From the sequence record OQ870555.1: a DNA stretch of 64,000 bases, one strand, 5' to 3'. Below are positions 1-13,090 of this stretch, one piece after another; the first letter of the stretch is position 1, and each line of letters begins with the position of its first letter. The position numbers were made by a program, and so were the translations under genes. A model generated the notes under the pieces. That model made no database searches, was not told the DNA's origin, and saw only the letters and a program-made list of their open reading frames with translations. This stretch comes from Escherichia phage PECP14.

Positions 1-9
1 AAAATTCAT

Positions 10-127
10 TGTCGGATTCGCACATATAAAAAATATTTCCCATCGGATTTGCACACTACCAAAAATTGTCGGATTCGCACATGCACGCTGGCACGTAATC
101 CGTGGGGGCAAATGTCGGATTTGCACA
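10..127. repeat. Four dispersed copies of a 15-bp motif TGTCGGATT(C/T)GCACA (10-24, 41-55, 67-81, 113-127)
   Basis: Read directly: near-identical 15-mers at four positions in non-coding DNA at the window start; candidate protein-binding sites. Confidence 0.8.
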
Positions 128-166
128 AAAGCGCAGGGCAAATAGAAAATGCCCTGCCTGCCGAAA

Positions 167-307
167 TGCGAATGATAATGAGATTGATTCGCATTTGAGA
201 AATTGAACGCGAATGAGAATGATTCGCGTTTAGAAAGCGGAATGAGAATGGTTATCATTTACAGAATTGAATGAGAGTGATTTGCATAATGAGAATGATC
301 TGCATTT
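167..307. repeat. Five tandem imperfect hairpin repeats, unit about GCGAATGAGAATGATTCGC(A/G)TTT
   Basis: Read directly: copies at 167-195, 208-230, 236-259, 268-286, 288-307; each contains the short palindrome GCGAAT...ATTCGC; not CRISPR-like (no uniform spacers). Confidence 0.8.
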
Positions 308-339
308 AGGAGGGGAAGTGAGAAACACTGTTATTTAAG

Positions 340-348
340 TTATCCACA
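340..348 (+). promoter_or_regulatory. DnaA box (TTATCCACA, perfect 9-mer consensus)
   Basis: Exact match to E. coli DnaA box consensus TTATNCACA; part of a 24-bp direct repeat GTTATCCACAGnnTTATnAACAG (339-362 and 400-423). Confidence 0.6.
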
Positions 349-400
349 GGTTTATTAACAGCACGATTTGACTTGACAAAATCCTAGCGATTTTGAGGCG

Positions 401-409
401 TTATCCACA
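401..409 (+). promoter_or_regulatory. DnaA box (TTATCCACA)
   Basis: Exact consensus 9-mer; lies inside the left arm of the 47-bp inverted repeat. Confidence 0.6.
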
Positions 410-447
410 GACTTATCAACAGGTTATTCTACTGTATAAATATACAG
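401..447. repeat. Left arm of a 47-bp inverted repeat (partner 4040-4086)
   Basis: Reverse complement of 4040-4086 equals 401-447 with 2 mismatches; each arm contains a DnaA box plus the LexA-like palindrome. Confidence 0.85.
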
Positions 448-449
448 TA
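430..449. promoter_or_regulatory. LexA (SOS) box-like palindrome TACTGTATAAATATACAGTA
   Basis: CTGT-N8-ACAG with an AT-only centre; 19/20 match to the ideal palindromic LexA operator TACTGTATATATATACAGTA. Function inferred, not demonstrated. Confidence 0.5.
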
Positions 450-561
450 TTCCTGCGTAGTGAATAACTCTAATATAGCTCTAAAACGCTCTATAACGCA
501 TTCTAACGCGTTTATTTTTGGGGGAGGTATTTTAATAAGGGGAAATTTGTTTGCAGGCAGA

Positions 562-590
562 AAAGGCGGGGCCGATAGTTGCGCCCCGTT
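562..590 (-). terminator. Rho-independent terminator-like hairpin (CGGGGC...GCCCCG) downstream of leftward gene 595-834
   Basis: GC-rich stem followed on the minus strand by CCTTTTCT; shares the motif CGCCCCGTTATTA with the hairpin at 1862-1885. Confidence 0.5.
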
Positions 591-594
591 ATTA

Positions 595-834
595 TTAGTC
601 TGCTATGTATTCCTTCTCGTAGTCGTCAAAGATCTGGACGGTTTCGGCTGGCGTATATCCATATGAATCAAAATGCGTACATGTTGAAACTGAATTGATC
701 CACGCCCCTAGCGCCGCCGTACTAGCTCCGCTTTTCTGCATTTCTAAAAATTGCGCATATTGCGCATCAGTTAAATGATGCTGCATAATATCGGTTTCTT
801 TACGTTCTACATATCGTAAAATTCTTACAGCCAT
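595..834 (-). CDS. hypothetical pre-early protein (79 aa)
   Basis: ORF in the leftward tandem array, followed by a terminator hairpin; no recognisable motif. Confidence 0.5.
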   Translation of the reverse strand: MAVRILRYVERKETDIMQHHLTDAQYAQFLEMQKSGASTAALGAWINSVSTCTHFDSYGYTPAETVQIFDDYEKEYIAD

Positions 835-961
835 GCCATTGCTCCTAGAATGAGAATGATTATCAATATCATTGTAAAGCCATTACCAAATCGTAAACGC
901 TGGGAATGTTTCCCAGCGGTATTATTAGATTTATGACTTTGTGTTTTTCGCCACCAGCTAT

Positions 962-1174
962 TCACGGTTTTAAATTCTCTATAGTTAATTTTGCGCGAAT
1001 AGTGATTCCATATAATTCGCCTCCCTTGTTTCTTACATCAGGTAGCCAGTCCCACAATTCAGAGTATCCGCTTAAAATTCCTAGCGATGCAAGATTAGCA
1101 ATAAAACCGGCTATAGTAACCGCTTCCAGTGAAATAGTTACACGATTATTAATAACTAAAGTAAACTTTTTCAT
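962..1174 (-). CDS. hypothetical protein (70 aa)
   Basis: ORF in the leftward array; 4-nt stop/start overlap with the upstream gene 1171-1515 suggests translational coupling. Confidence 0.45.
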   Translation of the reverse strand: MKKFTLVINNRVTISLEAVTIAGFIANLASLGILSGYSELWDWLPDVRNKGGELYGITIRAKLTIENLKP

Positions 1175-1515
1175 TGCGCTACCTTTCGAAACGCTGTTTC
1201 GATACTTTCAGCGGTTGATTGAATATATGCGCCTTTCATAATCAGGCGCTCCGTACATACTTTGCGGAAAATGTCAATAAATTCATTTTCATTTTCTGCT
1301 ACTAATGGCTCTCCCATAACCTGAATATCGCATGAGTTAAAAGTAAGAAACTGAAAGGCAAGCTCGCGAGCGACAACGGCATTAATCTTATAATGTGCTT
1401 TTCCTTCATAGATATTAACCACGCCTTTATAAACTGGTGAAAGCTGATTTAAATAGTTTGCTAATAATGCCGGACGGCAATTAGTAACAAAACGATTACC
1501 CTCGTAAATAACCAT
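1171..1515 (-). CDS. hypothetical protein (114 aa)
   Basis: ORF in the leftward array; coupled to 962-1174. Confidence 0.5.
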   Translation of the reverse strand: MVIYEGNRFVTNCRPALLANYLNQLSPVYKGVVNIYEGKAHYKINAVVARELAFQFLTFNSCDIQVMGEPLVAENENEFIDIFRKVCTERLIMKGAYIQSTAESIETAFRKVAQ

Positions 1516-1624
1516 TTGTCAAGCTCCTAAAGCTGGGAAAATATCAGGTACATTTTTAAAACAAATGCAGCGAATGAGCAAACAACGCCAACGGTAGCAA
1601 ACGCTAGAGCAATATATAAGGATC

Positions 1625-1843
1625 TCATAATACCCCACGAAAAGCAGCGTAAAAGGTGGCAAAGTGTTTAACCGTTTCGGCTACCAAATTTCCGCGCTTG
1701 TCAAATTTCTTTTCAGTAACACGAAACGCGTTTTTGTTGCGTGCTACATATTCGATTTTACAATCTGGACGCTCAAACGTGTTAACATCCACCAGCTTAA
1801 AACCTTTAGAACGGGCAAGGGAAACATTCTTTAACATTTGCAT
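1625..1843 (-). CDS. hypothetical protein (about 72 aa; start refined to internal ATG preceded by AGGAG)
   Basis: The listed ORF 1625-1930 runs through the hairpin at 1862-1885; the internal Met at 1843 has an AGGAG ribosome-binding site. Confidence 0.4.
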   Translation of the reverse strand: MQMLKNVSLARSKGFKLVDVNTFERPDCKIEYVARNKNAFRVTEKKFDKRGNLVAETVKHFATFYAAFRGVL

Positions 1844-1861
1844 GACTCCTAGTAAGGGAAT

Positions 1862-1885
1862 GAGGGGCGAAAGTAACGCCCCGTT
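1862..1885 (-). terminator. Hairpin GGGGCG-N7-CGCCCC between leftward genes
   Basis: GC stem read directly; the downstream T-run is weak, so this may be an attenuator or processing site. Confidence 0.35.
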
Positions 1886-1890
1886 ATTAA

Positions 1891-2121
1891 TTACATTAAA
1901 ACAATTTTCGCCGCTTGCTTTTTGGTGCAATGTTCTGATTTCAACGTGTCCAGCAAAAATCCGGCGGTTTGCTGGTCAATCTGATCATTATCATAAAGCG
2001 CCTGAATAGTAACATAAGTTTTACCTATCCCAAATTCCGAAACCATTTGATCAATGATCCAGCGATTAGATACCCAACCTTTACCAGTGAAAAGAGAGTC
2101 AGAAGAAGAGAAAGCAACCAT
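1891..2121 (-). CDS. hypothetical protein (about 76 aa)
   Basis: ORF with GGAGG 9 nt upstream of the ATG at 2121. Confidence 0.45.
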   Translation of the reverse strand: MVAFSSSDSLFTGKGWVSNRWIIDQMVSEFGIGKTYVTIQALYDNDQIDQQTAGFLLDTLKSEHCTKKQAAKIVLM

Positions 2122-2230
2122 TTTTAACGCCTCCAAAAAATTTTGGGAAAATTTTCAATCCACCGTTTCGGTGTAAAGGCATTATAACAAAAAAGGCCGC
2201 CGATTAAGGCGACCTTTACAAAACTTTACA

Positions 2231-2725
2231 TTAGACTATTTCTAATGCTTCAATGTTGAAACAGCGTTTTAATTCTTTCTGTAAAACGGCATATTCATCC
2301 CAACGGGAATTATCAGGAATATAAACAAGCTGTTTTAATCGATTTGCGTATAATAACGCCTTGTTACCAATTATTTCCGCGCCACCGTGTTTAATAATTA
2401 GTTTCATAACGGTATTAATAGGATCGCCGCCATTTACATAAGTACCAGACTTACTCAATTGATAATGATAAAGACTCGCATATACATTATCATTTTCAAT
2501 CCATTCCCCTGTTTCTTCATCTTCTTCCCCATCGCTACCGAAACGAGAAGCATTATCATATGCGTGTTCGTTTGCGAAAGCGTCCAGATCACAGCCAGCG
2601 GGAACAAAATGTTCCTCCGTCCAGCCCTCCCCGCAATAGCCAGTATGACAATCAACTAAAACGATCATATCGTGTTTAGCTTCATTCACACTTTCTAGCG
2701 AAAAGCCATATTTTTCTTCTGACAT
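2231..2725 (-). CDS. hypothetical acidic protein (164 aa) with Cys cluster (CHTGYCGEGW...GCD)
   Basis: ORF; acidic run SDGEEDEETGEW; function unknown. Confidence 0.55.
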   Translation of the reverse strand: MSEEKYGFSLESVNEAKHDMIVLVDCHTGYCGEGWTEEHFVPAGCDLDAFANEHAYDNASRFGSDGEEDEETGEWIENDNVYASLYHYQLSKSGTYVNGGDPINTVMKLIIKHGGAEIIGNKALLYANRLKQLVYIPDNSRWDEYAVLQKELKRCFNIEALEIV

Positions 2726-2761
2726 AATTAGTCTCCTAACAATTAACAGGGAAATAGTAAA

Positions 2762-2779
2762 GCGGGGAATAATCCCCGC
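2762..2779 (-). terminator. Hairpin GCGGGGA-ATAA-TCCCCGC (same hairpin as 6168-6185)
   Basis: Perfect 7-bp GC stem; on the minus strand followed by TTTACTATTT; sits between leftward genes 2789-3790 and 2231-2725. Confidence 0.5.
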
Positions 2780-2788
2780 TAGTAATTA

Positions 2789-3790
2789 TTATTCTGTTTC
2801 GGCGCTTTGAGTAAAGGTAGAAATGTCAATACCTTTTACCATTTCATCGATCATTTCAGCAATATTGAAACTCTGTACCATTTCCAACATTGCCGCTTCC
2901 ATTGCCGCGCCTGCTACCGCTTTCGCTTTCGCATTAGTCGGGGCGTACTGGTCAACCGCTACACTCAGCAGGTTAGCGATCACTACACGACCAATCGGCG
3001 TATCAATATAACCTTTAATCATAAACGGCGCTTTTTTCGCCGCTACTTTTGTGATTTGAGTCAGTGCAATTTTACCTGCTTCCAGTTTAGCAGCGTTAAC
3101 AACGGCGGATTTATTAGCGGCAACGATAGAAGATACTTTAGACATAATATTTCCTTTATTTTCAGTAGTTTGCGCATTTGCGCTTGAAGTTTGAGAGTTT
3201 ACAGCCTGTTTTGTTACGTTGTCAAGCGGTAAAAGTGTAAATCCAGCGTTTGCAACGTTTGATTCATTCCCATACTCTAAATAATCGTTAGGGATCAACA
3301 TGTTACCGCTAGCGCGTTCAAAACACAATACGCCAGTTGTTTCGATTGCGTCACTATCAGCACCTTTATAACTGGATGATAATTCACGCCAGATACTATT
3401 TAATAACGATCCGACACTATCAAGTCTGATACTATTTACTTTTGTTGCTGTTACCTGCTCTTTTTCTTGCACGTTATATAATCGCGCAATGTAACCATTA
3501 TGAGACTCACTATAACCAACAATGATAAAATCAATATCAGTTCCCCGACTATTACGGAAAATGTGATAATCACGGTTGAAAATTACTAGCGCCCTTGTCT
3601 GGTCTAGTAATAGCGTGAAATCATCAACTGAATAATGAGTATCATTATTGTCTAAAATTTCATCGTGAATCTTTTCTACAATAGTAGCGGTATGTTGTAC
3701 GCTTGCCGCACTACTACCATCTAGCAGGTTGCGCAAACTACCCTTAATAATAGTGGCGTTTGCTGGTACTGCAATTCTTACAGTAGACAT
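2789..3790 (-). CDS. hypothetical pre-early protein (333 aa)
   Basis: Long ORF with GAGGGAG upstream of the ATG; first gene of the leftward block; no motif recognised. Confidence 0.6.
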   Translation of the reverse strand: MSTVRIAVPANATIIKGSLRNLLDGSSAASVQHTATIVEKIHDEILDNNDTHYSVDDFTLLLDQTRALVIFNRDYHIFRNSRGTDIDFIIVGYSESHNGYIARLYNVQEKEQVTATKVNSIRLDSVGSLLNSIWRELSSSYKGADSDAIETTGVLCFERASGNMLIPNDYLEYGNESNVANAGFTLLPLDNVTKQAVNSQTSSANAQTTENKGNIMSKVSSIVAANKSAVVNAAKLEAGKIALTQITKVAAKKAPFMIKGYIDTPIGRVVIANLLSVAVDQYAPTNAKAKAVAGAAMEAAMLEMVQSFNIAEMIDEMVKGIDISTFTQSAETE

Positions 3791-4039
3791 TTCTTTGTCT
3801 CCCTCGTTAATCGGTGAGTGAATGATATAGATAATTGTTCGCTAGGGGCAAGAAAAAAGAAAAGGTTTTTTATTCCTTGCCTACTGCCTGTTTTTATGAT
3901 AGCCGCGCGTTTTCTATTTCTAGCTCTCTGTAAGCGTACACAAGGCTTTATTATAATAAGGGTAGCAGTGAGAAAACGCCGTGTAGCGCGTTCTAGGCCG
4001 CTTAAATTTGATTGCGGTTGTTACTGCTACCTATTTACC

Positions 4040-4055
4040 CTGTATATTTATACAG
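4040..4055. promoter_or_regulatory. LexA box-like palindrome CTGTATATTTATACAG
   Basis: CTGT-N8-ACAG with AT-only centre; mirror copy of the 430-449 element. Confidence 0.5.
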
Positions 4056-4077
4056 TAGAATAACCTGTATATAAGTC

Positions 4078-4086
4078 TGTGGATAA
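4078..4086 (-). promoter_or_regulatory. DnaA box (TGTGGATAA = TTATCCACA on the minus strand)
   Basis: Exact consensus 9-mer in inverted orientation. Confidence 0.6.
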
Positions 4087-4126
4087 GTCGCCAAAACGTC
4101 GCCTATTGCGTCAAGTTATTTTGTGC

Positions 4127-4135
4127 TGTGGATAA
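4127..4135 (-). promoter_or_regulatory. DnaA box (TGTGGATAA)
   Basis: Exact consensus 9-mer; a fifth 8/9 copy (AGTGGATAA) lies at 4411-4419. Confidence 0.55.
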
Positions 4136-4880
4136 CTTTGTGCATAACCTAAATGATAGTGGTTCTCACTTAGTCGATAGTTTCTTATAGTTATTATTTC
4201 TCTTTAATTTATAAGTATATTATATAATATGAAATAGTTAGTTGGCTAATAGGTTTTTAGAGTATTAATAGTCTGCTAACTGTTTCAGCTGTTACAATCC
4301 ACCAGCGTGATTATCCTCCTAGCGATTGTTAGTATGCTAATGGTCTGATACACGTCCAGACTTATTTGTCAATGAAAAATAACAGCAGAAAATACTTTTT
4401 TGAAAAATCAAGTGGATAACTCATTAAATTTCATTTTTGCTTTTTGTATAAGTTATTAACAGGGTCTAAAACGCTCTGTAAGCGATTCTAAGCGCCTCAA
4501 AGGAAAAGCTAGGCAAGTGCATTGCCTACTAGCCGTTATCGCCACTATGAGGATTTTAGATTTTGTCAAGTAGGGCAAAGCAAATATAAATGAAAAAATT
4601 ACTTGCTAAAATGGTTGTTTTGGTGTTATTCGCGCGCCCATTTCATTAAATTTAGTGCGCCGCTGGACGTTTGCGGGTAGTGGTTTTCTTTACGTTTCTT
4701 TACAAAAATACGCTTGCGCCATTTTCGGGAATAACCTATTATTTATCTCGTAGGACGGCGGGACGGAAACGAAACGCAAGATTACACGGCGGGGAAGTTT
4801 ACCGCCATGCTCTTTAAAAACTAGGGAACATCTTAAAGCCTATCGGCGGTAAACTTATATAATATAAGGAATCGACGATA

Positions 4881-5099
4881 ATGATCAAATCAAAAAACGC
4901 TTTAGTGATTAGTGCGAAACCTGCTAGCGCATTAGATAGCAGAACAAAAAATTTGTTGACAGTAGCGCAACGATCTGTAAAATACAGATTCAAGCAATAC
5001 AAGAAAGGTAAGCAGCAAGGTCTGGAAATGGTGTGGCGTAATATAATGATTGATTTATATAACTCCCATCAAATCGAAAAAAGTTTAAAAAACGCTTGA
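4881..5099 (+). CDS. hypothetical small basic protein (72 aa), doubtful
   Basis: ORF bracketed by a 23-bp inverted repeat; contains an internal TTGACA-N16-TAAAAT promoter-like sequence, so it may be non-coding. Confidence 0.25.
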   Translation: MIKSKNALVISAKPASALDSRTKNLLTVAQRSVKYRFKQYKKGKQQGLEMVWRNIMIDLYNSHQIEKSLKNA

Positions 5100-5263
5100 C
5101 ACGCTAGCCGATAGGTTTTAAGATGTTCCCCGTAGTAACTGCTCTTTAAAAATTTGGATAACGGTAATGTTTAGGCTAACTCCTAGCGGATTATAATCTA
5201 ATAGCGTTTCAAAGTATCGAGGCGCTATTGTGGAATAATCCCCAATAAACCGGAGTATTAAAA

Positions 5264-5515
5264 ATGCAAAACGTTATTACCGCGCCGAAAGTAGGTCAAT
5301 CTGTTTTCATTCCTTTTGTAACTAAAACTGATGAATTAACCGGAAAAGCCGAACGTATCAAAGGTGCGGCGCTTGATCCCTTTGATAAGATTGAAGCGGT
5401 CTATGCGGAAACGGAACGCAGTAACAACGGCAAGCCTATTTATAACGTCCGTGTTAAATCTGGCGACGTTGTAAAGGTCATTCAGAAAGATGATAAATGG
5501 CAAGCTATCGCCTAA
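5264..5515 (+). CDS. hypothetical protein (83 aa)
   Basis: ORF preceded by the conserved initiation region ACCGGAGTATTAAAAATG, which recurs at 6200-6218. Confidence 0.5.
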   Translation: MQNVITAPKVGQSVFIPFVTKTDELTGKAERIKGAALDPFDKIEAVYAETERSNNGKPIYNVRVKSGDVVKVIQKDDKWQAIA

Positions 5516-5740
5516 TAGCTTATTAATAACCCGCGCCTTTAATCGGCGTAAATAAATAAGGCTAGCGCCTCATGTTAGATTTTCGATATATTAACCATGT
5601 AGTGTGAACAATGTTATGGCACACAATTTAAACTTATATGATTAGTGTTACTTTTATATTCCCCTGAAATATGGGGAATATATGGATTAACATTAGTTAA
5701 TCATAATCCCTTAATTAATAATTGAATGGAGTATTAAATT

Positions 5741-6157
5741 ATGTCTAACGTTAAAACCGAAAAAACCGCAAAATTCTCTTGGAACGAAGAAAACACTGAA
5801 AAAGCTGTTTCTATGTATTCTGAAATGGTCGCTAAAAGCGGAATTGAATTTGCTAACAGTGACGGCTTGAAAGAAATCGCCGCCGCCGTTGGTGCTGCTA
5901 GTCCGGTGTCTGTACGTTCTAAATTGACCAGTGCAAAAGCCTACCAGAAAAGCGATAAACCGCGTAAAGTTGGCGGCGGGTCTAGTATCCGTAAAGCTCA
6001 CTATGTGCGCGTCATTGCTAAACATGCCATTGATAGCGGCATTGTAAAAGATGCCGATGATCTGGCAAGTCTGGAAAGTGCAAAACTTGAAACGCTGGAC
6101 GCCGTAGCGCAATTGTTAGGCGTAGCGGAGGAAGTAAAACAGGCCGCAGGTGAATAA
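5741..6157 (+). CDS. hypothetical protein (138 aa)
   Basis: ORF with AATGGAG upstream of the start and a terminator hairpin downstream. Confidence 0.55.
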   Translation: MSNVKTEKTAKFSWNEENTEKAVSMYSEMVAKSGIEFANSDGLKEIAAAVGAASPVSVRSKLTSAKAYQKSDKPRKVGGGSSIRKAHYVRVIAKHAIDSGIVKDADDLASLESAKLETLDAVAQLLGVAEEVKQAAGE

Positions 6158-6167
6158 ATTTTAATTA

Positions 6168-6185
6168 GCGGGGAATAATCCCCGC
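6168..6185 (+). terminator. Hairpin GCGGGGA-ATAA-TCCCCGC after gene 5741-6157
   Basis: Identical hairpin to 2762-2779; followed by TATAATTTCCCTTT. Confidence 0.5.
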
Positions 6186-6215
6186 TATAATTTCCCTTTG
6201 ACCGGAGTTATTAAA

Positions 6216-6443
6216 ATGATCTTCTTTCCTAGTGAAGCGTTTATTTTAGGTTTATTTATAGTTGCCGCTATATTTATATTTAATTACGGCAAATATATAA
6301 TCTCTATTATCGGCATTAATTCAGCTTATGCCGCTGATATGTTTAAACGTCAAGCTAATAAACAAAAATATCTAGCGATTATATTTTTAACGCTGGCTAT
6401 CAGTTGCGGTTTTAGTTCTAGTCTTATGCCAATTCTAGAATAA
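6216..6443 (+). CDS. small membrane protein (about 75 aa, two predicted transmembrane helices)
   Basis: Hydrophobic stretches FILGLFIVAAIFIF and LAIIFLTLAISCGF; start taken at the ATG preceded by ACCGGAGTTATTAAA. Confidence 0.5.
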   Translation: MIFFPSEAFILGLFIVAAIFIFNYGKYIISIIGINSAYAADMFKRQANKQKYLAIIFLTLAISCGFSSSLMPILE

Positions 6444-6551
6444 TATTGCAAATTATAACGCCTTTTAAATTGTCCTCACTTCAGGCAAGGCGTTATATTT
6501 GGCAATATTGCCAGTATTAATATTTATCCCTTTATAGGAGTTGATTTAGTT

Positions 6552-8216
6552 ATGAATATTTCCGCAGAAAAACAAGCTCAAATTCTGAAAATGGCCGCAG
6601 ATTTTAACTTCTACGGTAAGCGTTTACGCGCTACTAAATTGGAAGTTTGCGACGATATTTCAAAAGCTGTTTATGATACGCCGAAACATTCGACCGCAAT
6701 TTGTGACTGGTTAGAAGCAAATAAGCCAGCGAAACCGAAAGCGGCAAAAGCTGAAAAGGCGATTAAAAATGATGATCGCCCCGAAGCGGCGGGAATTGTT
6801 TCTAGTACCGTTGAACAATGGGAAGTTAAATCCGGTCGCCGTTTTATTCTAACGTCGATTCAAAATAATACTTTCCCGCATAAAAACTTTTTAGCAAGTC
6901 TGGAAAAATTCGCTGAATATTGCGGCGCTGAATTGCTGATTAGTAAATTCATTTATAATAAAAATGGATTCCAGAACGGGGAAGGGGCAAACGGTATTAA
7001 ATACGATCCCGCATTTGATAAATATGTTTGTGATAAAAACGTATTTTTAAATAATCGCCGCTTTGCTTTCATGGCTGAAATTAACGTTTTACCAACGGCA
7101 GATTATCCGCTTTCAGGATTCGCAGAAACCGCCACGGCTTTAAATATCGAAGGTCTGGCAATTGGTCACGCTAAAATCACCGCTGAAAGTGTGCCAGCGT
7201 TAAAAGGTGAAGTCGTGCGCCGTATGTATTCAACCGGAACGGCGACACTAAAAAACTATATCCAGCAAAAGGCGGGACAAAAAGCCGAGGCTTTACATAA
7301 TTTCGGCGCTTTGCTGGTAGAGTTTGACGACGACGGAGAATTTTATTGCCGCCAGCTTGAAACAATGGACGAAAGCGGAATGTTCTACGATTTGAACGTG
7401 TGCGCTACCGCTACCGGATGTTATGAAACATCGGGCCATGTTCTAGGCTTGCAATATGGCGATATTCACGCCGAAAAACTAGATGATGATTGCGCCGTCG
7501 CTTCATGGGCTAGTGAAAACAGCTTGCTTGATATTCTTAAACCGAAATATCAATTTATTCATGATGTGCATGATTTTACATCCCGCAATCACCATAACCG
7601 CGCAAGTGGTGTATTCCTTGCTAAACAGTACGCCGCAGGACGTGATAAAGTTATTGATGATTTGATTGATACCGGTCGCGTGTTGGAATCTATGGAGCGT
7701 GATTTCTCTCAAACAATCATTGTGGAATCTAACCATGATTTAGCTCTTTCACGCTGGCTAGATGATCGTAACGCTAACATTAAGGACGATCCCGCAAACG
7801 CGGAACTGTATCACCGTCTAAACGCTGCGATTTACGCCGCTATTGCTGAAAAGGATGATACCTTTAACGTGCTAGATTACGCCTTGCGGAACGTCGCAGG
7901 ATGCGAATTTAACGCCATTTTCTTGACTACTGACCAGTCATTTAAAATCGCTGGCATTGAATGCGGCGTACATGGTCACAACGGCATTAACGGCAGTCGG
8001 GGCAATCCTAAGCAGTTTAAAAAGTTGGGACGCCTTAACACTGGTCATACTCATACGGCTAGCATTTACGGCGGCGTTTATACCGCTGGCGTGGCGGGGT
8101 CGCTTGATATGGGCTACAACGTGGGCGCGTCAAGCTGGACGCAAACGCATTTAATTACCTATGCAAACGGTCAAAGAACATTGATTGACTTTAAGAATGG
8201 TAAATTCTTTGCATAA
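6552..8216 (+). CDS. A1: A1-like pre-early protein, calcineurin-type metallophosphoesterase (554 aa)
   Basis: Phosphoesterase motifs GDIHAE and ESNHDL in the translation; size and position next to A2-like and dmp genes match my recollection of T5 A1 (about 556 aa). Confidence 0.8.
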   Translation: MNISAEKQAQILKMAADFNFYGKRLRATKLEVCDDISKAVYDTPKHSTAICDWLEANKPAKPKAAKAEKAIKNDDRPEAAGIVSSTVEQWEVKSGRRFILTSIQNNTFPHKNFLASLEKFAEYCGAELLISKFIYNKNGFQNGEGANGIKYDPAFDKYVCDKNVFLNNRRFAFMAEINVLPTADYPLSGFAETATALNIEGLAIGHAKITAESVPALKGEVVRRMYSTGTATLKNYIQQKAGQKAEALHNFGALLVEFDDDGEFYCRQLETMDESGMFYDLNVCATATGCYETSGHVLGLQYGDIHAEKLDDDCAVASWASENSLLDILKPKYQFIHDVHDFTSRNHHNRASGVFLAKQYAAGRDKVIDDLIDTGRVLESMERDFSQTIIVESNHDLALSRWLDDRNANIKDDPANAELYHRLNAAIYAAIAEKDDTFNVLDYALRNVAGCEFNAIFLTTDQSFKIAGIECGVHGHNGINGSRGNPKQFKKLGRLNTGHTHTASIYGGVYTAGVAGSLDMGYNVGASSWTQTHLITYANGQRTLIDFKNGKFFA

Positions 8217-8268
8217 TTAAATTTAATCGGCGGTTGAAATATACCGCCATTAATAAAAGGTTTATTAA

Positions 8269-8526
8269 ATGAATATTGTATTACCTAAAACACTGGATAA
8301 AAAGCAGTATATAACGCCGGATGATATGGAATGCGGCAAGGTATACCAATTCGATTATATGTTGGCTAGTCCGACGAATACAGGTTGTATTATTGCAGTT
8401 GATACCCGTGATAATGACGTATTAACGTTTAATGATTATTCTGACTTTATGGAATGGTTAGATGATCAAAGTATTACTAATAACGGCGAATTAACGCCGT
8501 ATCAATTAACAATTGCAATTAAATAA
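8269..8526 (+). CDS. hypothetical protein (85 aa)
   Basis: ORF between the A1 and A2-like genes. Confidence 0.45.
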   Translation: MNIVLPKTLDKKQYITPDDMECGKVYQFDYMLASPTNTGCIIAVDTRDNDVLTFNDYSDFMEWLDDQSITNNGELTPYQLTIAIK

Positions 8527-8562
8527 ATTAATCCCGTAATTAAATAATCTGGAGTCATAAAC

Positions 8563-8955
8563 ATGAAACAACAAAATATTCCTTTTGATCGCGCTACTTC
8601 TTCCATCGTTCTAGTTTATTCTAATGGCGAACGTTATCACGTCGAGGCGGGGCAAGTTAATTTAGATTTGCTGAATTATAACGACGCTTTGCAGGTTACT
8701 ACCTTTGCTTATGATACCGGCAAAGTGGCAAGCCATACAAAAGCAAAAGGCGTTTACGCTGATACTTTGACAGTGCAAACAATTATTATTGATGCGCTTA
8801 AATCCGGTCTAGCGTTTGCAGTTGTTAAGCCGTGTCCGGTCTGCCATCCCGAAGCTAGCGCGATGGTTTACACTTGCGCGGGGATTCGCTCTAGTGTACA
8901 TGGTGAAGATCTTAGCTTTATCGCCGATGCTCTCGCTTTTGGTCTGGCGTTCTAA
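8563..8955 (+). CDS. A2-like pre-early protein (130 aa)
   Basis: Size and position after A1 are consistent with T5 A2 (about 14-15 kDa); assigned by synteny only. Confidence 0.5.
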   Translation: MKQQNIPFDRATSSIVLVYSNGERYHVEAGQVNLDLLNYNDALQVTTFAYDTGKVASHTKAKGVYADTLTVQTIIIDALKSGLAFAVVKPCPVCHPEASAMVYTCAGIRSSVHGEDLSFIADALAFGLAF

Positions 8956-8978
8956 TAGTTAATTGAACATTGCCAGCT

Positions 8979-9009
8979 AATCTAATATAATTAGCTGGCA
9001 AGATTGAAT
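8979..9009. other. Perfect 11-bp stem hairpin TGCCAGCTAAT-N7-ATTAGCTGGCA between A2-like gene and dmp
   Basis: Read directly; no T-run follows, so it may be a processing or regulatory structure rather than a terminator. Confidence 0.5.
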
Positions 9010-9042
9010 TAACCTAAATCCCTTAAATGGAGAATGTAACAA

Positions 9043-9777
9043 ATGAATCAAGTCAACATGAATATTACCCGCACTTTCCCGCATATTTCCCGCGTTATGA
9101 TTTGGGATTTAGACGGAACGATTATAAATTCTTTCCATCGTGTAGCGCCTTGCTTTGACGATAACGGGAATTTAGATTTAGTTAAGTATTCCCGCGAAGC
9201 CTGCAAACATGAATTAATTATGCAGGATTCCTTATTACCATTGGTTGAATATATGCGCCAATGTATGAATGATCCCAATACCTTAAACCTTATTTGTACC
9301 GCTCGCTTAATGGGTAAATCTGATTATTATTTCTTGCGTAAACAAAGTCTAAGAGGGCGCGGAAATAGTAATATTCGCGTATTTTCCCGCGATACATTAC
9401 ATAAATACTTTGATGCAAATAAGGTTAGCGAAATATACCACAGTAAAGACGCTGTATATAAATCTTATTACTTTGAACTGTTTAAACAGCTATACCCTAA
9501 CGCTGATTTTACGATGATTGATGATCATAAAGGTGTATTATCGGCGGCGGCAAGTGCTGGATTTAAAACGCTGGACGCTCAAGCCGTTAATGATATCCTA
9601 TCAATCGGGGTAACATTGATCGGTGAAACCTTTATTGATGAATCGTTAGATGATGATAACGATTATCAATTCCTAGCCGAACGTTTAAAAATGTGTTGGG
9701 AAGGTATGACCGAGGAAGAACGCGCGGAATATAGTACCACACCGCAACAATTCATTGATAAATTAAAAGTTGCCTAA
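9043..9777 (+). CDS. dmp: 5'-deoxyribonucleotidase, HAD superfamily (244 aa)
   Basis: HAD motif I (IWDLDGTII) near the N-terminus; length matches my recollection of T5 Dmp. Confidence 0.75.
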   Translation: MNQVNMNITRTFPHISRVMIWDLDGTIINSFHRVAPCFDDNGNLDLVKYSREACKHELIMQDSLLPLVEYMRQCMNDPNTLNLICTARLMGKSDYYFLRKQSLRGRGNSNIRVFSRDTLHKYFDANKVSEIYHSKDAVYKSYYFELFKQLYPNADFTMIDDHKGVLSAAASAGFKTLDAQAVNDILSIGVTLIGETFIDESLDDDNDYQFLAERLKMCWEGMTEEERAEYSTTPQQFIDKLKVA

Positions 9778-9795
9778 CAATTAAAAATAAAATAG

Positions 9796-9830
9796 TCACG
9801 GTGTGTAACGATAACATGCCGTGACTATTA
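9796..9830 (-). terminator. Rho-independent terminator (stem TAGTCACGG / CCGTGACTA, then TTTTATTTTT on minus strand)
   Basis: 9-bp stem plus T-run; closes the leftward small-gene operon and lies just after the dmp stop. Confidence 0.55.
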
Positions 9831-9935
9831 GCTTGCTAAGTACCGGGGCGGTAATGAGACTCATTCTCATCTAGGGAACCTCTGGGCACACCTTCATGTG
9901 TAATCTTAGGAGATTTGGCAAAAGTCAAATTAGCG

Positions 9936-10151
9936 CTATTTACGGACTGACTGCTTGAGAATGGACTGCCATAGAGGGTCAGTCTTAACAAGATTATTGA
10001 TGTACTCAATAGCTTCATCAAATCTCATAAATCCTTCTGGAATTTCCGAAGACTTAGGAAGAACCTGTAGTAACTCCTGAGTGATGCCCATCTTTTCAAG
10101 TTCTTCTTGGGTTATCTCAAACTCCCCGAAAAACTTCCCGAATTCTTTCAT
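9936..10151 (-). CDS. hypothetical small soluble protein (about 71 aa)
   Basis: ATG at 10151 overlaps the TGA of the upstream gene (ATGA) and is preceded by AGGAGAAG; the longer listed ORF (to 10232) is probably an upstream extension. Confidence 0.4.
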   Translation of the reverse strand: MKEFGKFFGEFEITQEELEKMGITQELLQVLPKSSEIPEGFMRFDEAIEYINNLVKTDPLWQSILKQSVRK

Positions 10152-10393
10152 GAGCTTCTCCTGTCTACTGGCTTGTCTCCCGATTCTGACATACGAAATC
10201 TCCTCCGCGACGCCCGAGATCCATCCGACCACTCTCGCTCAAACTCCTCCCGTTTCTCCGCAAACCTCCGCTCCCTTTCCGAAAGCTCCCGCGATACTCC
10301 CGCAACATATTCACGATGCTTGTTAATAGCCCCGAGTGTTCCGAAGATTCCCGCAAGTACCCCGATAATGAAGATAGCTACAAAGCTAAACAT
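10148..10393 (-). CDS. small membrane protein (81 aa; N-terminal transmembrane helix, charged Arg/Glu-rich tail)
   Basis: N-terminus MFSFVAIFIIGVLAGIFGTLGA is hydrophobic; start overlaps the stop of the 34-aa ORF (TAATG). Confidence 0.45.
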   Translation of the reverse strand: MFSFVAIFIIGVLAGIFGTLGAINKHREYVAGVSRELSERERRFAEKREEFEREWSDGSRASRRRFRMSESGDKPVDRRSS

Positions 10394-10497
10394 TATTTAT
10401 CTCCCCGCAGCTTACGTTCGATACGAGCTAAATGGTTATCTAGAATGCACTGCCCGATAATTACCACAACTAGTAAAGCAATAATCACTACTTCCAT
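10393..10497 (-). CDS. very small transmembrane peptide (34 aa, MEVVIIALLVVVIIGQCILDNHLARIERKLRGDK)
   Basis: Hand-translated (below the 60-aa ORF cutoff); start and stop both overlap neighbouring genes by TAATG. Confidence 0.3.
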   Translation of the reverse strand: MEVVIIALLVVVIIGQCILDNHLARIERKLRGDK

Positions 10498-10682
10498 TAT
10501 AACCACCCCGCCATAGCTGCTAACCAAAAGAGTACAAAGATAAAGAATAATACAGTTCCGAATCCGAAACTATTTATCCAACTTTCGTATACTTCTCCGC
10601 GTCTGTTCTTTCTTCTGTTGTCGTTTGACATCTCTTTGCTTCTCCTGTAAGCCTGGTATTTGGAAGATTCTAGCAATTGCAC
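10497..10682 (-). CDS. small tail-anchored membrane protein (61 aa or shorter; C-terminal transmembrane helix)
   Basis: C-terminus FGFGTVLFFIFVLFWLAAMAGWL is hydrophobic; overlaps the upstream 104-aa ORF, so the exact start is uncertain. Confidence 0.4.
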   Translation of the reverse strand: MQLLESSKYQAYRRSKEMSNDNRRKNRRGEVYESWINSFGFGTVLFFIFVLFWLAAMAGWL

Positions 10683-10884
10683 GAACCATTACGACTGTCC
10701 CGATAAGATCCATTACTTCGTCGAAGCCGGATTCTTCTAGTAAGAAGGATGTTCCCATCACGTCTTCCATTGTATCTTCTATGACGTCTTGAATGATTTC
10801 GTTAATTGCATCATGTATTGCTTTAGTCCTGGGATCTATTTCAAAGTTAACAGGTTCCTGAAAGGACTTTTCTTCATCTTGCAT
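10570..10884 (-). CDS. hypothetical acidic protein (104 aa)
   Basis: ORF immediately downstream of llp on the same strand; acidic N-terminal half. Confidence 0.4.
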   Translation of the reverse strand: MQDEEKSFQEPVNFEIDPRTKAIHDAINEIIQDVIEDTMEDVMGTSFLLEESGFDEVMDLIGTVVMVRAIARIFQIPGLQEKQRDVKRQQKKEQTRRSIRKLDK

Positions 10885-10958
10885 TGTGTTTGCTACCTGT
10901 ACCTCATCCCAGAAATAAAAATTTTTGTTTACTTCGAGATCTTTTTACTTTATACTAA

Positions 10959-11225
10959 TTACAAGTGACCAGATTGTTCTAGTTTAAATTTGCAATCGCC
11001 ATATTTGAGGTCAAACTGTGACAAATCCCACCACCCAAACTTAGTGCGTAACTGAGTTTTAGGGAATCGGTAGCCCACAGTACGTGCTTCTCGAATATCT
11101 AAAGCATAGTGTTCTTCACCAACATGACCATAAGACTTCACGTATGCCTTACAGAATGGCTCGGGAGCCGGTACACAACCCGTCAACACTGCTGCTGCAA
11201 CTACGATGGCTAGTAACTTTTTCAT
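10959..11225 (-). CDS. llp: Llp-like lipoprotein (receptor-blocking superinfection-exclusion protein, 88 aa)
   Basis: Signal peptide plus lipobox (AAAVLTGC); divergently placed next to the receptor-binding-protein gene, as I recall for T5 llp/oad. Confidence 0.75.
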   Translation of the reverse strand: MKKLLAIVVAAAVLTGCVPAPEPFCKAYVKSYGHVGEEHYALDIREARTVGYRFPKTQLRTKFGWWDLSQFDLKYGDCKFKLEQSGHL

Positions 11226-11254
11226 AATCGTTCCTCTGTTTAATTTATAAATAT

Positions 11255-11283
11255 ATTATAGCAAAATAGAGGGATCTAAGCAA
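11255..11283 (-). promoter_or_regulatory. Early sigma70-type promoter for llp (TTGCTT-N17-TATAAT)
   Basis: Minus-strand -35 TTGCTT at 11278-11283 and -10 TATAAT at 11255-11260 with a 17-nt spacer and AT-rich downstream region. Confidence 0.6.
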
Positions 11284-11308
11284 ATACATTTTTAAAGAAG
11301 GAGATTGT

Positions 11309-13090
11309 ATGAGTTTTTTCGCAGGAAAATTTAGTGATGGTAAAACTGTATTATCTCTAAACGCTGCTAATGGTGGTGATATAAATCAGCACTACTCTCC
11401 AAATACTAATAGTATCTTCCACTCAGATATGCCCTTCGTCCTAGTTGATGGGACTTATGAGGCTGCCCTAGGTGATGCAGGTAATGGGTACTTTGTTACT
11501 CAGATGCCTTGGGATATTATAAACATTAAATCCAATGATCCTGGTAGAGTTATATTAACTGCTATTGAGATAAATGGTACTCATAGGGGTTTCCTTAATG
11601 GTACACAATCTCAGGTTGGCCAGTTCTTATCATTCTTTGAAGACCAACCACGTGCTGGTGCTGAACTGGCTATAACATCTGCTTTTGCAATCGGTGATAG
11701 TTTAGCTCACGGTACTTATATATATAATGGTGGTCTTGGTCATGAGGAATCTATTGCTAGGCAAGGAACTGGTGGTACTTTACTACAATCTTCCGGTTTC
11801 CAGATCTTTAGACCTGGTGGTGTTTCCGCAGGTGAAGCTATTTCCAGAGCCTGGGGATTAATGGGCTTTCCTACTGGTGTTTCTACTGTTCCTATAGATG
11901 GTGGTAACGCCGATTATTGGGAACCTAACTGGCAAGCGCCTGTTGGTTCTGCTGGTAGAGGCCATGATTGGTTTTATGTTTGTAATTCTAATATTCGTGG
12001 CTTCGCAGGTAAGAAAGGTGTACTACCAGATAACGTAAACGTTCTTTACCAATCTCCTGCATATCCAGAAAAAATATATGTTTGTAGAGGTTCTACTTCT
12101 AATATGGCTGCTCAGTCTGCTAGAAAGGTATATGTACAGGACTGGTATAACGTTACGCCAACTAAGGTTATTTGGTATGTGCTAAATCTGCGCTATTCTA
12201 ATGGTAGTATGGGGGTTTCTGGTAATCCATTTACCGGTTCAGATATCCTAATATCTCCATCTAACTTTACTATTAAAGGTGTTAGCCTACCAAATACAGG
12301 CTATAAATTTATTAACCAGAATGCTTTCGGAAACTTAGGCTATCGCCCTGATATGGAGTATGTTGGTAATAACGCCGCGTATACCGGAGTTTTTGGTGAT
12401 AATACTGCACGATGTGAATTTATTGGCTCTAGTAACGGTGGGTTGTGGTCACCCGTTAACTATGGGGGTGCAGCTTCTCAAATTAGCCTATATAAATTTG
12501 GTGTAGGTAAACAATGGTATGTAGATACTAATACCAACTCCATTGGTAATGAACATGGACCTGTCTGGAGTCCTAGTACTGTACCCCTCAGGTTATTCCC
12601 AGGCAACGTTGCAAGTACTTATGTAGGGGATGATATAACTCCATCCTACCCTGGTGCTGGTGACTTCTACACACCTTTGGCCACAGTTTGGTTGGGATTA
12701 CCAAATGCTCACTCTACTGTTATATTAACTACTGAAGTTATTATGGGTAATCTTAATACTGCTGGAATGCCTGTGCGTACTTATGGTGGTAGTGCTTGGC
12801 AGGTACAAGGTAGACGTCAACAAAGTTATACAGCTGGTGATGGTGTATTCCATCAGATTCTTACTCTGCCACCTGGCTATCTAGTACCTTATCACAGTAC
12901 AACTTCCTATAGTTATACACAAACTTGGGCTAGTAGGCCAGATGAGTTTGCTTTCCGTAGGAACGGATATATTTATACTATTAAAAACCTTGGTAATGGC
13001 AACGTTGAGTTGGGTGTTATCATTCACGCTGCAGAAGCGGCAGCTGTTTTCTTGCCAAGACTACGTGTAACAGTTCAACGCCTAACCTAA
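11309..13090 (+). CDS. receptor-binding tail protein (pb5-like, 593 aa)
   Basis: Large Gly/Asn/Thr-rich protein divergent from llp and just upstream of the terminase genes; assigned by synteny. Receptor specificity cannot be read from sequence. Confidence 0.7.

Follow-up and report, generated by a model that had tools for sequence, protein, structure and literature searches.

A probable accessory right-arm operon within first-step-transfer DNA from the T5-like Escherichia phage PECP14

Near the start of the 64,000-nucleotide stretch analysed here (the window), which comes from Escherichia phage PECP14 (sequence record OQ870555.1), positions 595-3790 hold a block of leftward genes that is very probably the 'right-arm' accessory operon belonging to the first-step-transfer (FST), or pre-early, DNA of a T5-like Epseptimavirus. 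This assessment draws on the position of the block, the inverted repeat that brackets it, a promoter shared with T5 and a backbone of genes in the T5 order. An earlier description, made without database searches and referred to below as the sequence-only reading, had placed here seven pre-early genes of unassigned function enclosed by host-factor binding sites. The region is largely described already and the genome is nearly identical to many sequenced ones; the main value of the present analysis is clarification, and it also offers a testable idea about an internal start in the largest of the genes.

The long terminal repeat of T5 constitutes the FST DNA and carries the pre-early genes (NC_005859). 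Positions 1-6000 of the window match 533 phage records, the best being Epseptimavirus genomes at 93-96 % nucleotide identity, including the Salmonella phages STK8t, OSY-STA, Stitch and SIY1lw, as well as the E. coli phage IrmaTschudi. In the records that keep their ends (Stitch, SIY1lw and EscoHU1), the alignment falls within the annotated long terminal repeat, and the window therefore starts inside the terminal repeat, i.e. the FST DNA, of an Epseptimavirus, its orientation being the reverse of the standard T5 map. The gene A2 lies at 5741-6157 on the plus strand, with the A1 and dmp homologs beyond it, also rightward, and the seven open reading frames (ORFs) of the block run leftward from a non-coding region of about 1 kb, diverging from the A2-A1-dmp operon. 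Location in the long terminal repeat combined with this divergence is one of the hallmarks of a pre-early right-arm operon, and both the terminal-repeat alignment and the A2/A1/dmp synteny uphold the T5-type placement that had been proposed from the letters alone.

A 132-nt inverted repeat flanks the block, with arms at 316-447 and 4040-4171 that are 78 % complementary (Table 1). Four copies of the paired motif TTATNNACA-N3-TTATNNACA exist in the 64 kb, every one inside the arms, against 0.13 expected, and none of 100 shuffles reached that number; furthermore, five of the seven matches to TTWTNCACA in the whole window fall within the 264 nt of the arms. The four pairs make up eight 9-mers, all of them in the arms, as is characteristic of the repeats bracketing a T5-type right-arm operon. 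Davison documented, in 25 T5-like phages, IRC-spacer-IRD and IRD'-spacer-IRC' arrangements of approximately 131 bp with eight DnaA boxes, paired 3 nt apart, and the repeat structure of the arms is that already described there. The arms carry predicted DnaA sites, to which DnaA would be expected to bind. Thus, the notion of enclosing host-factor sites survives in the form of four paired DnaA-box-like motifs, but it does not extend to IHF, whose consensus was found six times in the 64-kb window versus 5.9 expected and shows no enrichment. Adjoining the distal arm, window positions 1-340 are dense in short direct repeats, including four to five copies of a AATGAGAATGAT-type unit at 177-337 and an 18-nt unit at 8-25, 65-82 and 111-128; this stretch appears to be the counterpart of the injection-stop-signal repeat region of T5.

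Transcription of the block can likewise be compared with that of T5. The sigma-70 promoter hexamers TTGCCC-N18-TATCAT, together with the leader behind them, can be aligned to the stretch annotated as a promoter in T5 (6411-6489). Hairpins are located 3' of the 333-, 164-, 76- and 79-amino acid (aa) genes, and the one following the last gene (569-589) was recognized by reading the sequence, the consensus terminator scan having left it uncalled. In the T-tract behind the 164-aa gene, TGTTATAAT at 2181-2189 is a candidate internal promoter that may restart transcription for the 76-aa and downstream genes. The promoter-deleting suppressors of T5 reported by Kibby et al. (bioRxiv 10.1101/2022.07.19.500537), which carry an ORF009-012 deletion, fit a single operon driven from upstream of 011. 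Expression before second-step transfer has been shown for T5 and for Bas33 relatives.

The interval 595-3790 is filled by seven minus-strand ORFs, and the ratio of nonsynonymous to synonymous substitution (dN/dS), calculated against the diverged Epseptimavirus bastian, is 0.02-0.20 for all seven, indicating purifying selection; because of these values, the ORFs are taken to be genes and not chance occurrences, in agreement with the sequence-only reading. That reading gave product sizes of 79-333 aa, which two start changes have corrected to 70-333 aa. The '101-aa' ORF likely starts at the ATG at 1837, which sits 8 nt 3' of AGGAG and yields 70 aa (1625-1837), the length that PHROG and T5 homologs also have, and the start of the '81-aa' ORF was moved to the ATG at 2121, yielding 76 aa (1891-2121). 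Two extra small ORFs, of 33 aa (1527-1628) and 46 aa (825-965), are contained within the block and are annotated in some relatives; the latter is possibly coding. The ATG of the 962-1174 gene overlaps the stop of the 114-aa gene. Kyte-Doolittle maxima lie above the membrane threshold for the 33-aa (2.47), 46-aa (2.21) and 70-aa (962-1174; 1.77) products, and these three hydrophobic peptides are predicted to insert into the inner membrane. In bastian, an unrelated 41-aa hydrophobic peptide occupies the slot of the 33-aa ORF, as if the position at 1527-1628 needed some small membrane peptide and not a particular sequence. Pfam, PHROGs, NCBIfam and PADLOC scans of all products returned only DUF7566, PHROGs without a function and the mislabelled phrog_4227.

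Table 1. Features of the block and its flanks, in window coordinates
Feature	Position	Strand	Remarks
Distal inverted-repeat arm, by the injection-stop repeats	316-447		DnaA-box-like 9-mer pairs at 340-360 and 401-421; counterpart of Davison IRD'-spacer-IRC'
Candidate operon terminator, G+C-rich hairpin then T-rich (CCTTTTCT) tract	569-589	-	After the last gene; sequence read
79-aa acidic protein (pI 4.8)	595-834	-	phrog_12351; dN/dS 0.06; no T5 counterpart; in a minority of relatives
Candidate 46-aa ORF	825-965	-	GTG start overlaps stop of the 962-1174 gene; basic N-terminus, hydrophobic C-terminal tail
70-aa protein, one predicted membrane helix (residues 16-34)	962-1174	-	dN/dS 0.20; Epseptimavirus-type phages only
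114-aa T5.015 ortholog	1171-1515	-	Sequence homology
33-aa single-helix hydrophobic peptide	1527-1628	-	ATG overlaps stop of the 70-aa gene (1625-1837)
70-aa basic protein (pI 10.1), T5.014 ortholog	1625-1837	-	dN/dS 0.02
76-aa T5.012 ortholog (~90 % identical)	1891-2121	-	T5.012 non-toxic in T5 screens
TGTTATAAT, extended -10-like element	2181-2189	-	In the terminator T-tract after the 164-aa gene; position of the AY587007 'T5P5' promoter
Terminator-like hairpin and T-run 3' of the 164-aa gene	2192-2217	-	Terminator scan
164-aa acidic protein	2231-2725	-	phrog_6741
Hairpin 3' of the 333-aa gene	2761-2780	-	Position of T5's annotated terminator after T5.011
333-aa T5.011 ortholog (DUF7566)	2789-3790	-	Pfam match
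Promoter-like TTGACA-N18-TAAACT inside the 333-aa gene	3196-3225	-	Followed by AAAGGA-N7-ATG at Met216 (near 3145)
Operon promoter TTGCCC-N18-TATCAT	3822-3851	-	Shared with T5, where a promoter is annotated upstream of T5.011
Proximal inverted-repeat arm	4040-4171		DnaA-box-like 9-mer pairs at 4066-4086 and 4127-4147; counterpart of Davison IRC-spacer-IRD

The counterpart of the block in T5 is T5.011-T5.017 (NC_005859 6495-9157), which has the same position in the terminal repeat, the same inverted repeats with paired DnaA boxes and the same promoter. Mapping by tblastn revealed a backbone order, 011-012-014-015, common to T5 and PECP14, with amino acid identities of 56 %, 90 %, 93 % and 89 %, respectively. 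Around that backbone the two differ. T5.013 (a toxic, two-helix membrane protein), T5.016, T5.017 and the upstream homing endonuclease gene hegG are confined to T5 in this comparison and lack a counterpart here, whereas in PECP14 the 164-aa gene separates 011 from 012, the 33-aa membrane peptide lies between 014 and 015, and the 3' tail is a different one, made up of 70-, 46- and 79-aa ORFs, with the 164-aa, 70-aa (962-1174) and 79-aa proteins having no T5 counterpart. Among 30 related loci, a presence/absence matrix shows the backbone to be nearly constant and the 3' tail to be variable. Stitch, STK8t, SIY1lw, OSY-STA, bastian and IrmaTschudi/Bas28, at the 93-96 % identity noted above, exhibit only small mosaic differences, and several block proteins match public records exactly; yet the 70-aa gene at 962-1174 is missing from Stitch and SIY1lw, although it is found in 66 other phage records, and bastian, which is devoid of a 012 homolog, carries a further gene of 102 aa. 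By these comparisons, the operon is a mosaic in which a conserved backbone is joined by insertion slots and a variable 3' tail, both of which are swapped among phages. The whole block is dispensable in T5, a viable T5 with a hegG-to-017 deletion having been obtained by Annor 2026 (bioRxiv 10.64898/2026.04.02.716235).

Since inverted repeats flank a stretch that differs in gene content from phage to phage, and since the arms are between 1.85 and 4.26 kb apart in the survey by Davison, the block might instead be thought of as a cassette that moves or inverts, its 132-nt repeats serving as ends for recombination and not as host-factor sites. This is very improbable. The homologs detected downstream of 011 keep one and the same order in T5 and in each of the 30 related loci, the Pfam and PHROG scans of the block revealed no encoded recombinase or transposase, the variation takes the form of single-gene insertions and replacements in a fixed backbone and not of movement by the whole unit, and the arms carry conserved paired DnaA-box motifs. 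An accessory operon bounded by predicted DnaA sites remains the favoured description.

Three of the products have T5 orthologs that were studied experimentally, and the earlier statement that no product could be assigned is accordingly out of date for the 114-aa, 70-aa (1625-1837) and 333-aa proteins. The cloning and toxicity screens that had been recommended for these genes have, in effect, already been carried out on T5 orthologs. Mahata 2021 (PMC8201957) cloned 13 T5 pre-early genes, found T5.008, T5.011 and T5.015 to be toxic, and demonstrated that T5.015 binds the host uracil-DNA glycosylase, Ung, and nicks Ung-generated abasic sites. Annor 2026 cloned all 17 T5 pre-early genes and observed toxicity for 011 (with uneven nucleoid staining) and 015 as well as lysis for 013; 011 could be cloned only as a recoded copy. 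The 114-aa product of PECP14 is identical to T5.015 at 101 of 114 positions (89 %) over its full length, with all six lysines kept, and UniRef names T5.015 an AP endonuclease. In related contigs, PF26847, 'Phage_T5_AP_Endonuclease', matches 113- to 115-aa products that occupy the same place in the operon; this model is newer than the Pfam release scanned here, and its matches are those recorded on the related contigs. The 114-aa product is therefore regarded as the T5.015 ortholog, and by orthology it would nick abasic sites in an Ung-dependent manner.

The neighbouring 70-aa protein (1625-1837) is identical to T5 AAX11952.1 at 65 of 70 positions (93 %; five differences), and AAX11952.1, which is ORF015 of AY587007, is identical to the 70-aa T5.014 of NC_005859. 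Kibby et al. found that T5 escapers of bNACHT01 were mutated in 'orf008' (AAX11945.1) and 'orf015' (AAX11952.1), and that expression of orf015 lowers the protection afforded by several bNACHT proteins. The 70-aa protein is thus the ortholog of a modulator of bNACHT defence and, going by the T5 protein, probably shares that activity. The partner of orf015 in bNACHT escape, orf008, which inhibits growth when co-expressed with bNACHT proteins, also has an ortholog in the window, in the form of an 83-aa protein (DUF7177) at 5264-5515 on the plus strand; AAX11945.1 corresponds to T5.007.

In RefSeq, in PHROG 4227 and in many other records, however, it is this 70-aa protein that is labelled 'endonuclease nicking abasic sites generated by host uracil glycosylase Ung'. 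We conclude, with a small doubt, that the name is the product of a mix-up and that the characterized T5.015 is the neighbouring 114-aa protein; the likely source is confusion of the 'ORF015' of AY587007 (70 aa) with the 'T5.015' of NC_005859 (114 aa), the two genes lying side by side in T5 at 8086-8298 (70 aa) and 8300-8644 (114 aa). It is conceivable that the label is correct and that the Ung-dependent AP endonuclease is the 70-aa protein, in line with RefSeq NC_005859 and many phage records: the protein is very basic and lysine-rich, which would fit an AP lyase, and the non-toxic mutant of Mahata 2021 bears three lysine substitutions. Nevertheless, this assignment is quite improbable. The gene list of Mahata 2021 omits exactly 001, 004, 006 and 010, which are the named genes under the NC_005859 numbering, where T5.015 is the 114-aa protein; Annor 2026, cloning by NC_005859 numbering, again saw toxicity with 015 but none with 014; UniRef and Pfam PF26847 put the activity on the 114-aa family; and the 70-aa protein is 'ORF015' only under the AY587007 numbering, which accounts for the mislabel.

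The largest product, of 333 aa, matches DUF7566 (PF24450) over residues 1-333 of 333, with an E-value of 2.3e-141 and a score of 471.7 bits versus a cut-off of 27, and is 56 % identical overall to T5.011, which older annotation lists as an 'unessential' 37-kDa pre-early protein of the del1 region. The similarity to T5.011 is unevenly distributed, with residues 1-200 being 40 % identical and residues 206-333 being 90 % identical, and the alignment of the family has the same character, a variable N-terminal part being followed by a nearly invariant C-terminal part. Between PECP14 and T5, codon differences at identical residues are about as frequent in one part as in the other (0.40 and 0.34), and the conservation of the C-terminus is therefore attributed to selection at the protein level and not to recent exchange. 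AlphaFold2 modelled residues 1-190 confidently (pLDDT 75-95) as an alpha/beta domain, and gave low confidence to the helical C-terminus; in the layout of the protein, a variable alpha/beta domain (1-190) is connected by a linker to a helical C-terminal module (216-333) that is highly conserved.

UniRef and some GenBank records present members of this family as DNA N6-adenine methyltransferases, the name being attached to many UniRef homologs as well as to SIY1lw_00008 and to the STG2 record. We consider this function exceedingly improbable for the 333-aa protein. The sole Pfam match is DUF7566, at full length, with no methyltransferase family at E <= 1; the NCBIfam scan yielded nothing relevant; neither a profile search of PDB sequences nor fold comparison produced a match; and T5-like phages reportedly have DNA that is unmethylated at Dam and Dcm sites. 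What the Pfam match and T5 orthology point to is a toxic pre-early protein of the DUF7566 type.

There are signs that the 333-aa gene may have a second start. A promoter-like sequence and, behind it, AAAGGA-N7-ATG at Met216 (Table 1) are both kept in T5 and Stitch, and, among 24 distinct homologs, synonymous diversity drops to 0.06-0.11 at codons 184-213 versus 0.2-0.45 in most other windows. That trough is not unique, because diversity falls to a comparable extent (0.06-0.14) over codons 101-116 and 231-248. Together, the internal elements, the trough and the need to recode 011 for cloning suggest, as a working hypothesis, that an internal start might separately express the 118-aa C-terminal module from Met216. 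Searching with the module alone recovered only fragments of the same family, and the stand-alone 118-aa ORF calls among them sit at contig ends, which makes them uninformative.

The 164-aa protein, encoded at 2231-2725, had been singled out as an 'acidic Cys-cluster' protein. The first half of that description stands, in that the protein has an isoelectric point (pI) of 4.55 and 30 D/E versus 13 K/R residues, a strong net negative charge of the kind seen in DNA mimics such as Ocr and ArdA. The second half does not, since C31 is the sole cysteine invariant in the family, C26 and C45 being variable, and a Cys-cluster metal binder was rejected on that account. An acidic DNA-mimic anti-restriction protein of the Ocr/ArdA kind was also considered and set aside, as there was no sequence or structural similarity to a known mimic. 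Distant members of the family have a CPxC...CxxC zinc-ribbon insert in the acidic loop, which in PECP14 reads DGEEDEETGE and lacks the insert; the ancestral form of the family may have bound zinc.

A word-indexed search placed the family of the 164-aa protein in 19 clusters, and an exhaustive HMMER profile search of 1.84 billion representatives found 33 proteins, ranging from 45 to 261 aa; phage records and metagenomic sequences are their only sources. Apart from the zinc-ribbon inserts, no informative extra domain was seen in the 33 members. The structure model of the 164-aa protein is confident and gave no PDB fold match, and a profile search of PDB sequences returned nothing. Foldseek against BFVD retrieved only uncharacterized phage proteins, the named ones being from phages of Salmonella, Pectobacterium, Klebsiella and Pantoea, and a viral-contig scan with the family yielded close relatives only. 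Of the 30 related loci, 13 have the gene, and in each of these it lies between the 011 and 012 homologs; it thus fills an insertion slot of the pre-early operon in roughly 40 % of T5-like genomes. Judging by its position, charge and patchy distribution, our best guess is that the protein is an inhibitor of a host factor or of host defence. The more novel readings are that the 164-aa protein could represent a novel type of inhibitor, acting on a host defence or DNA-handling factor, and that the 333-aa gene may encode two products; taken jointly, they are offered tentatively, their likelihood falling well short of even.

With regard to mechanism, homology to T5 suggests that transcription would begin at the promoter upstream of the 011 homolog and, by read-through of partial terminators and perhaps with the help of a second promoter near 2185, would deliver a string of small host-manipulating proteins. 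By orthology to T5.011, the 333-aa DUF7566 protein would be toxic and would disturb nucleoid organization, with its conserved C-terminal helical module as the likely effector or targeting part. As in T5, the 70-aa basic protein would dampen bacterial NLR-like (bNACHT) immune signalling, and the 114-aa protein would bind the host uracil-DNA glycosylase and nick the resulting abasic sites, leading to damage of dUMP-containing host DNA. The sequences themselves hint that the 33-, 46- and 70-aa hydrophobic peptides would go to the inner membrane and that the soluble 164-, 76- and 79-aa proteins would bind host factors; from context, counter-defence is the most likely role of the variable genes. 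The whole block would be dispensable in laboratory hosts, as its T5 counterpart is.

The sequence-only reading saw in all seven products functionally unassigned and novel candidates for anti-defence or host shutoff, and part of this can be retained. Four of the seven (164, 76, 70 and 79 aa) belong to no family of known function, homology searches assigned none of the products to housekeeping, and a literature search on T5.011, T5.012, T5.014, T5.016, T5.017 and DUF7566 found nothing beyond the two screens. Host takeover and anti-defence are also the right class of function, judging by the T5 orthologs of three products, whereas for the 164-, 76-, 70- and 79-aa proteins such roles are guesses from context. 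As a statement about all seven, the proposal is nonetheless unlikely: three products have experimentally studied T5 orthologs, such that for the 114-aa, 70-aa (1625-1837) and 333-aa proteins it is already refuted, and published work already covers the region along with its flanking repeats and dispensability.

Several points weigh against the description of the block as a T5-like accessory pre-early operon, or at least against the functions attached to it. Every function proposed for the block is carried over from T5 orthologs that are 56-93 % identical. The 333-aa protein may differ in activity from T5.011, given that identity between the two N-terminal domains is only about 40 %. Pfam, NCBIfam and PADLOC gave no matches at all for the 164-, 76-, 70- (962-1174) and 79-aa products. 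Finally, Epseptimaviruses are reportedly sensitive to restriction-modification systems, unlike Tequintaviruses, and the genus-specific genes therefore clearly supply no general anti-restriction.

Some activities ascribed to T5-like pre-early functions are still without a gene, namely the suppression of Dam/Dcm methylation in the host, the protection against RecBCD and, for Tequintavirus, the evasion of restriction. A short, testable set of candidates for these consists of backbone gene 012 along with the variable genes, and the shortlist of open genes in PECP14 comprises those for the 164-, 76-, 70- (962-1174) and 79-aa products together with the small membrane peptides. The comparison also exposes two annotation errors that are spreading in phage records, i.e. 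the Ung-nickase name on the wrong neighbour and the unsupported methyltransferase name on DUF7566. In terms of RNA, an Rfam scan of window positions 1-12000 gave zero family matches, and a search of the whole window found no tRNAs. On the other side of the non-coding region, a 72-aa protein encoded at 4881-5099 on the plus strand is the ortholog of T5.008 (Hdi), the host division inhibitor that targets FtsZ. Its gene is flanked by a 24-nt inverted repeat (4824-4847 and 5107-5130; 96 % complementary), which may be compared with the inverted repeat A/A' of T5, and strong promoter-like sites overlap or follow it, namely TTGACA-16-TAAAAT at 4956-4983 and TTGACA-17-TAAGAT at 5096-5124.

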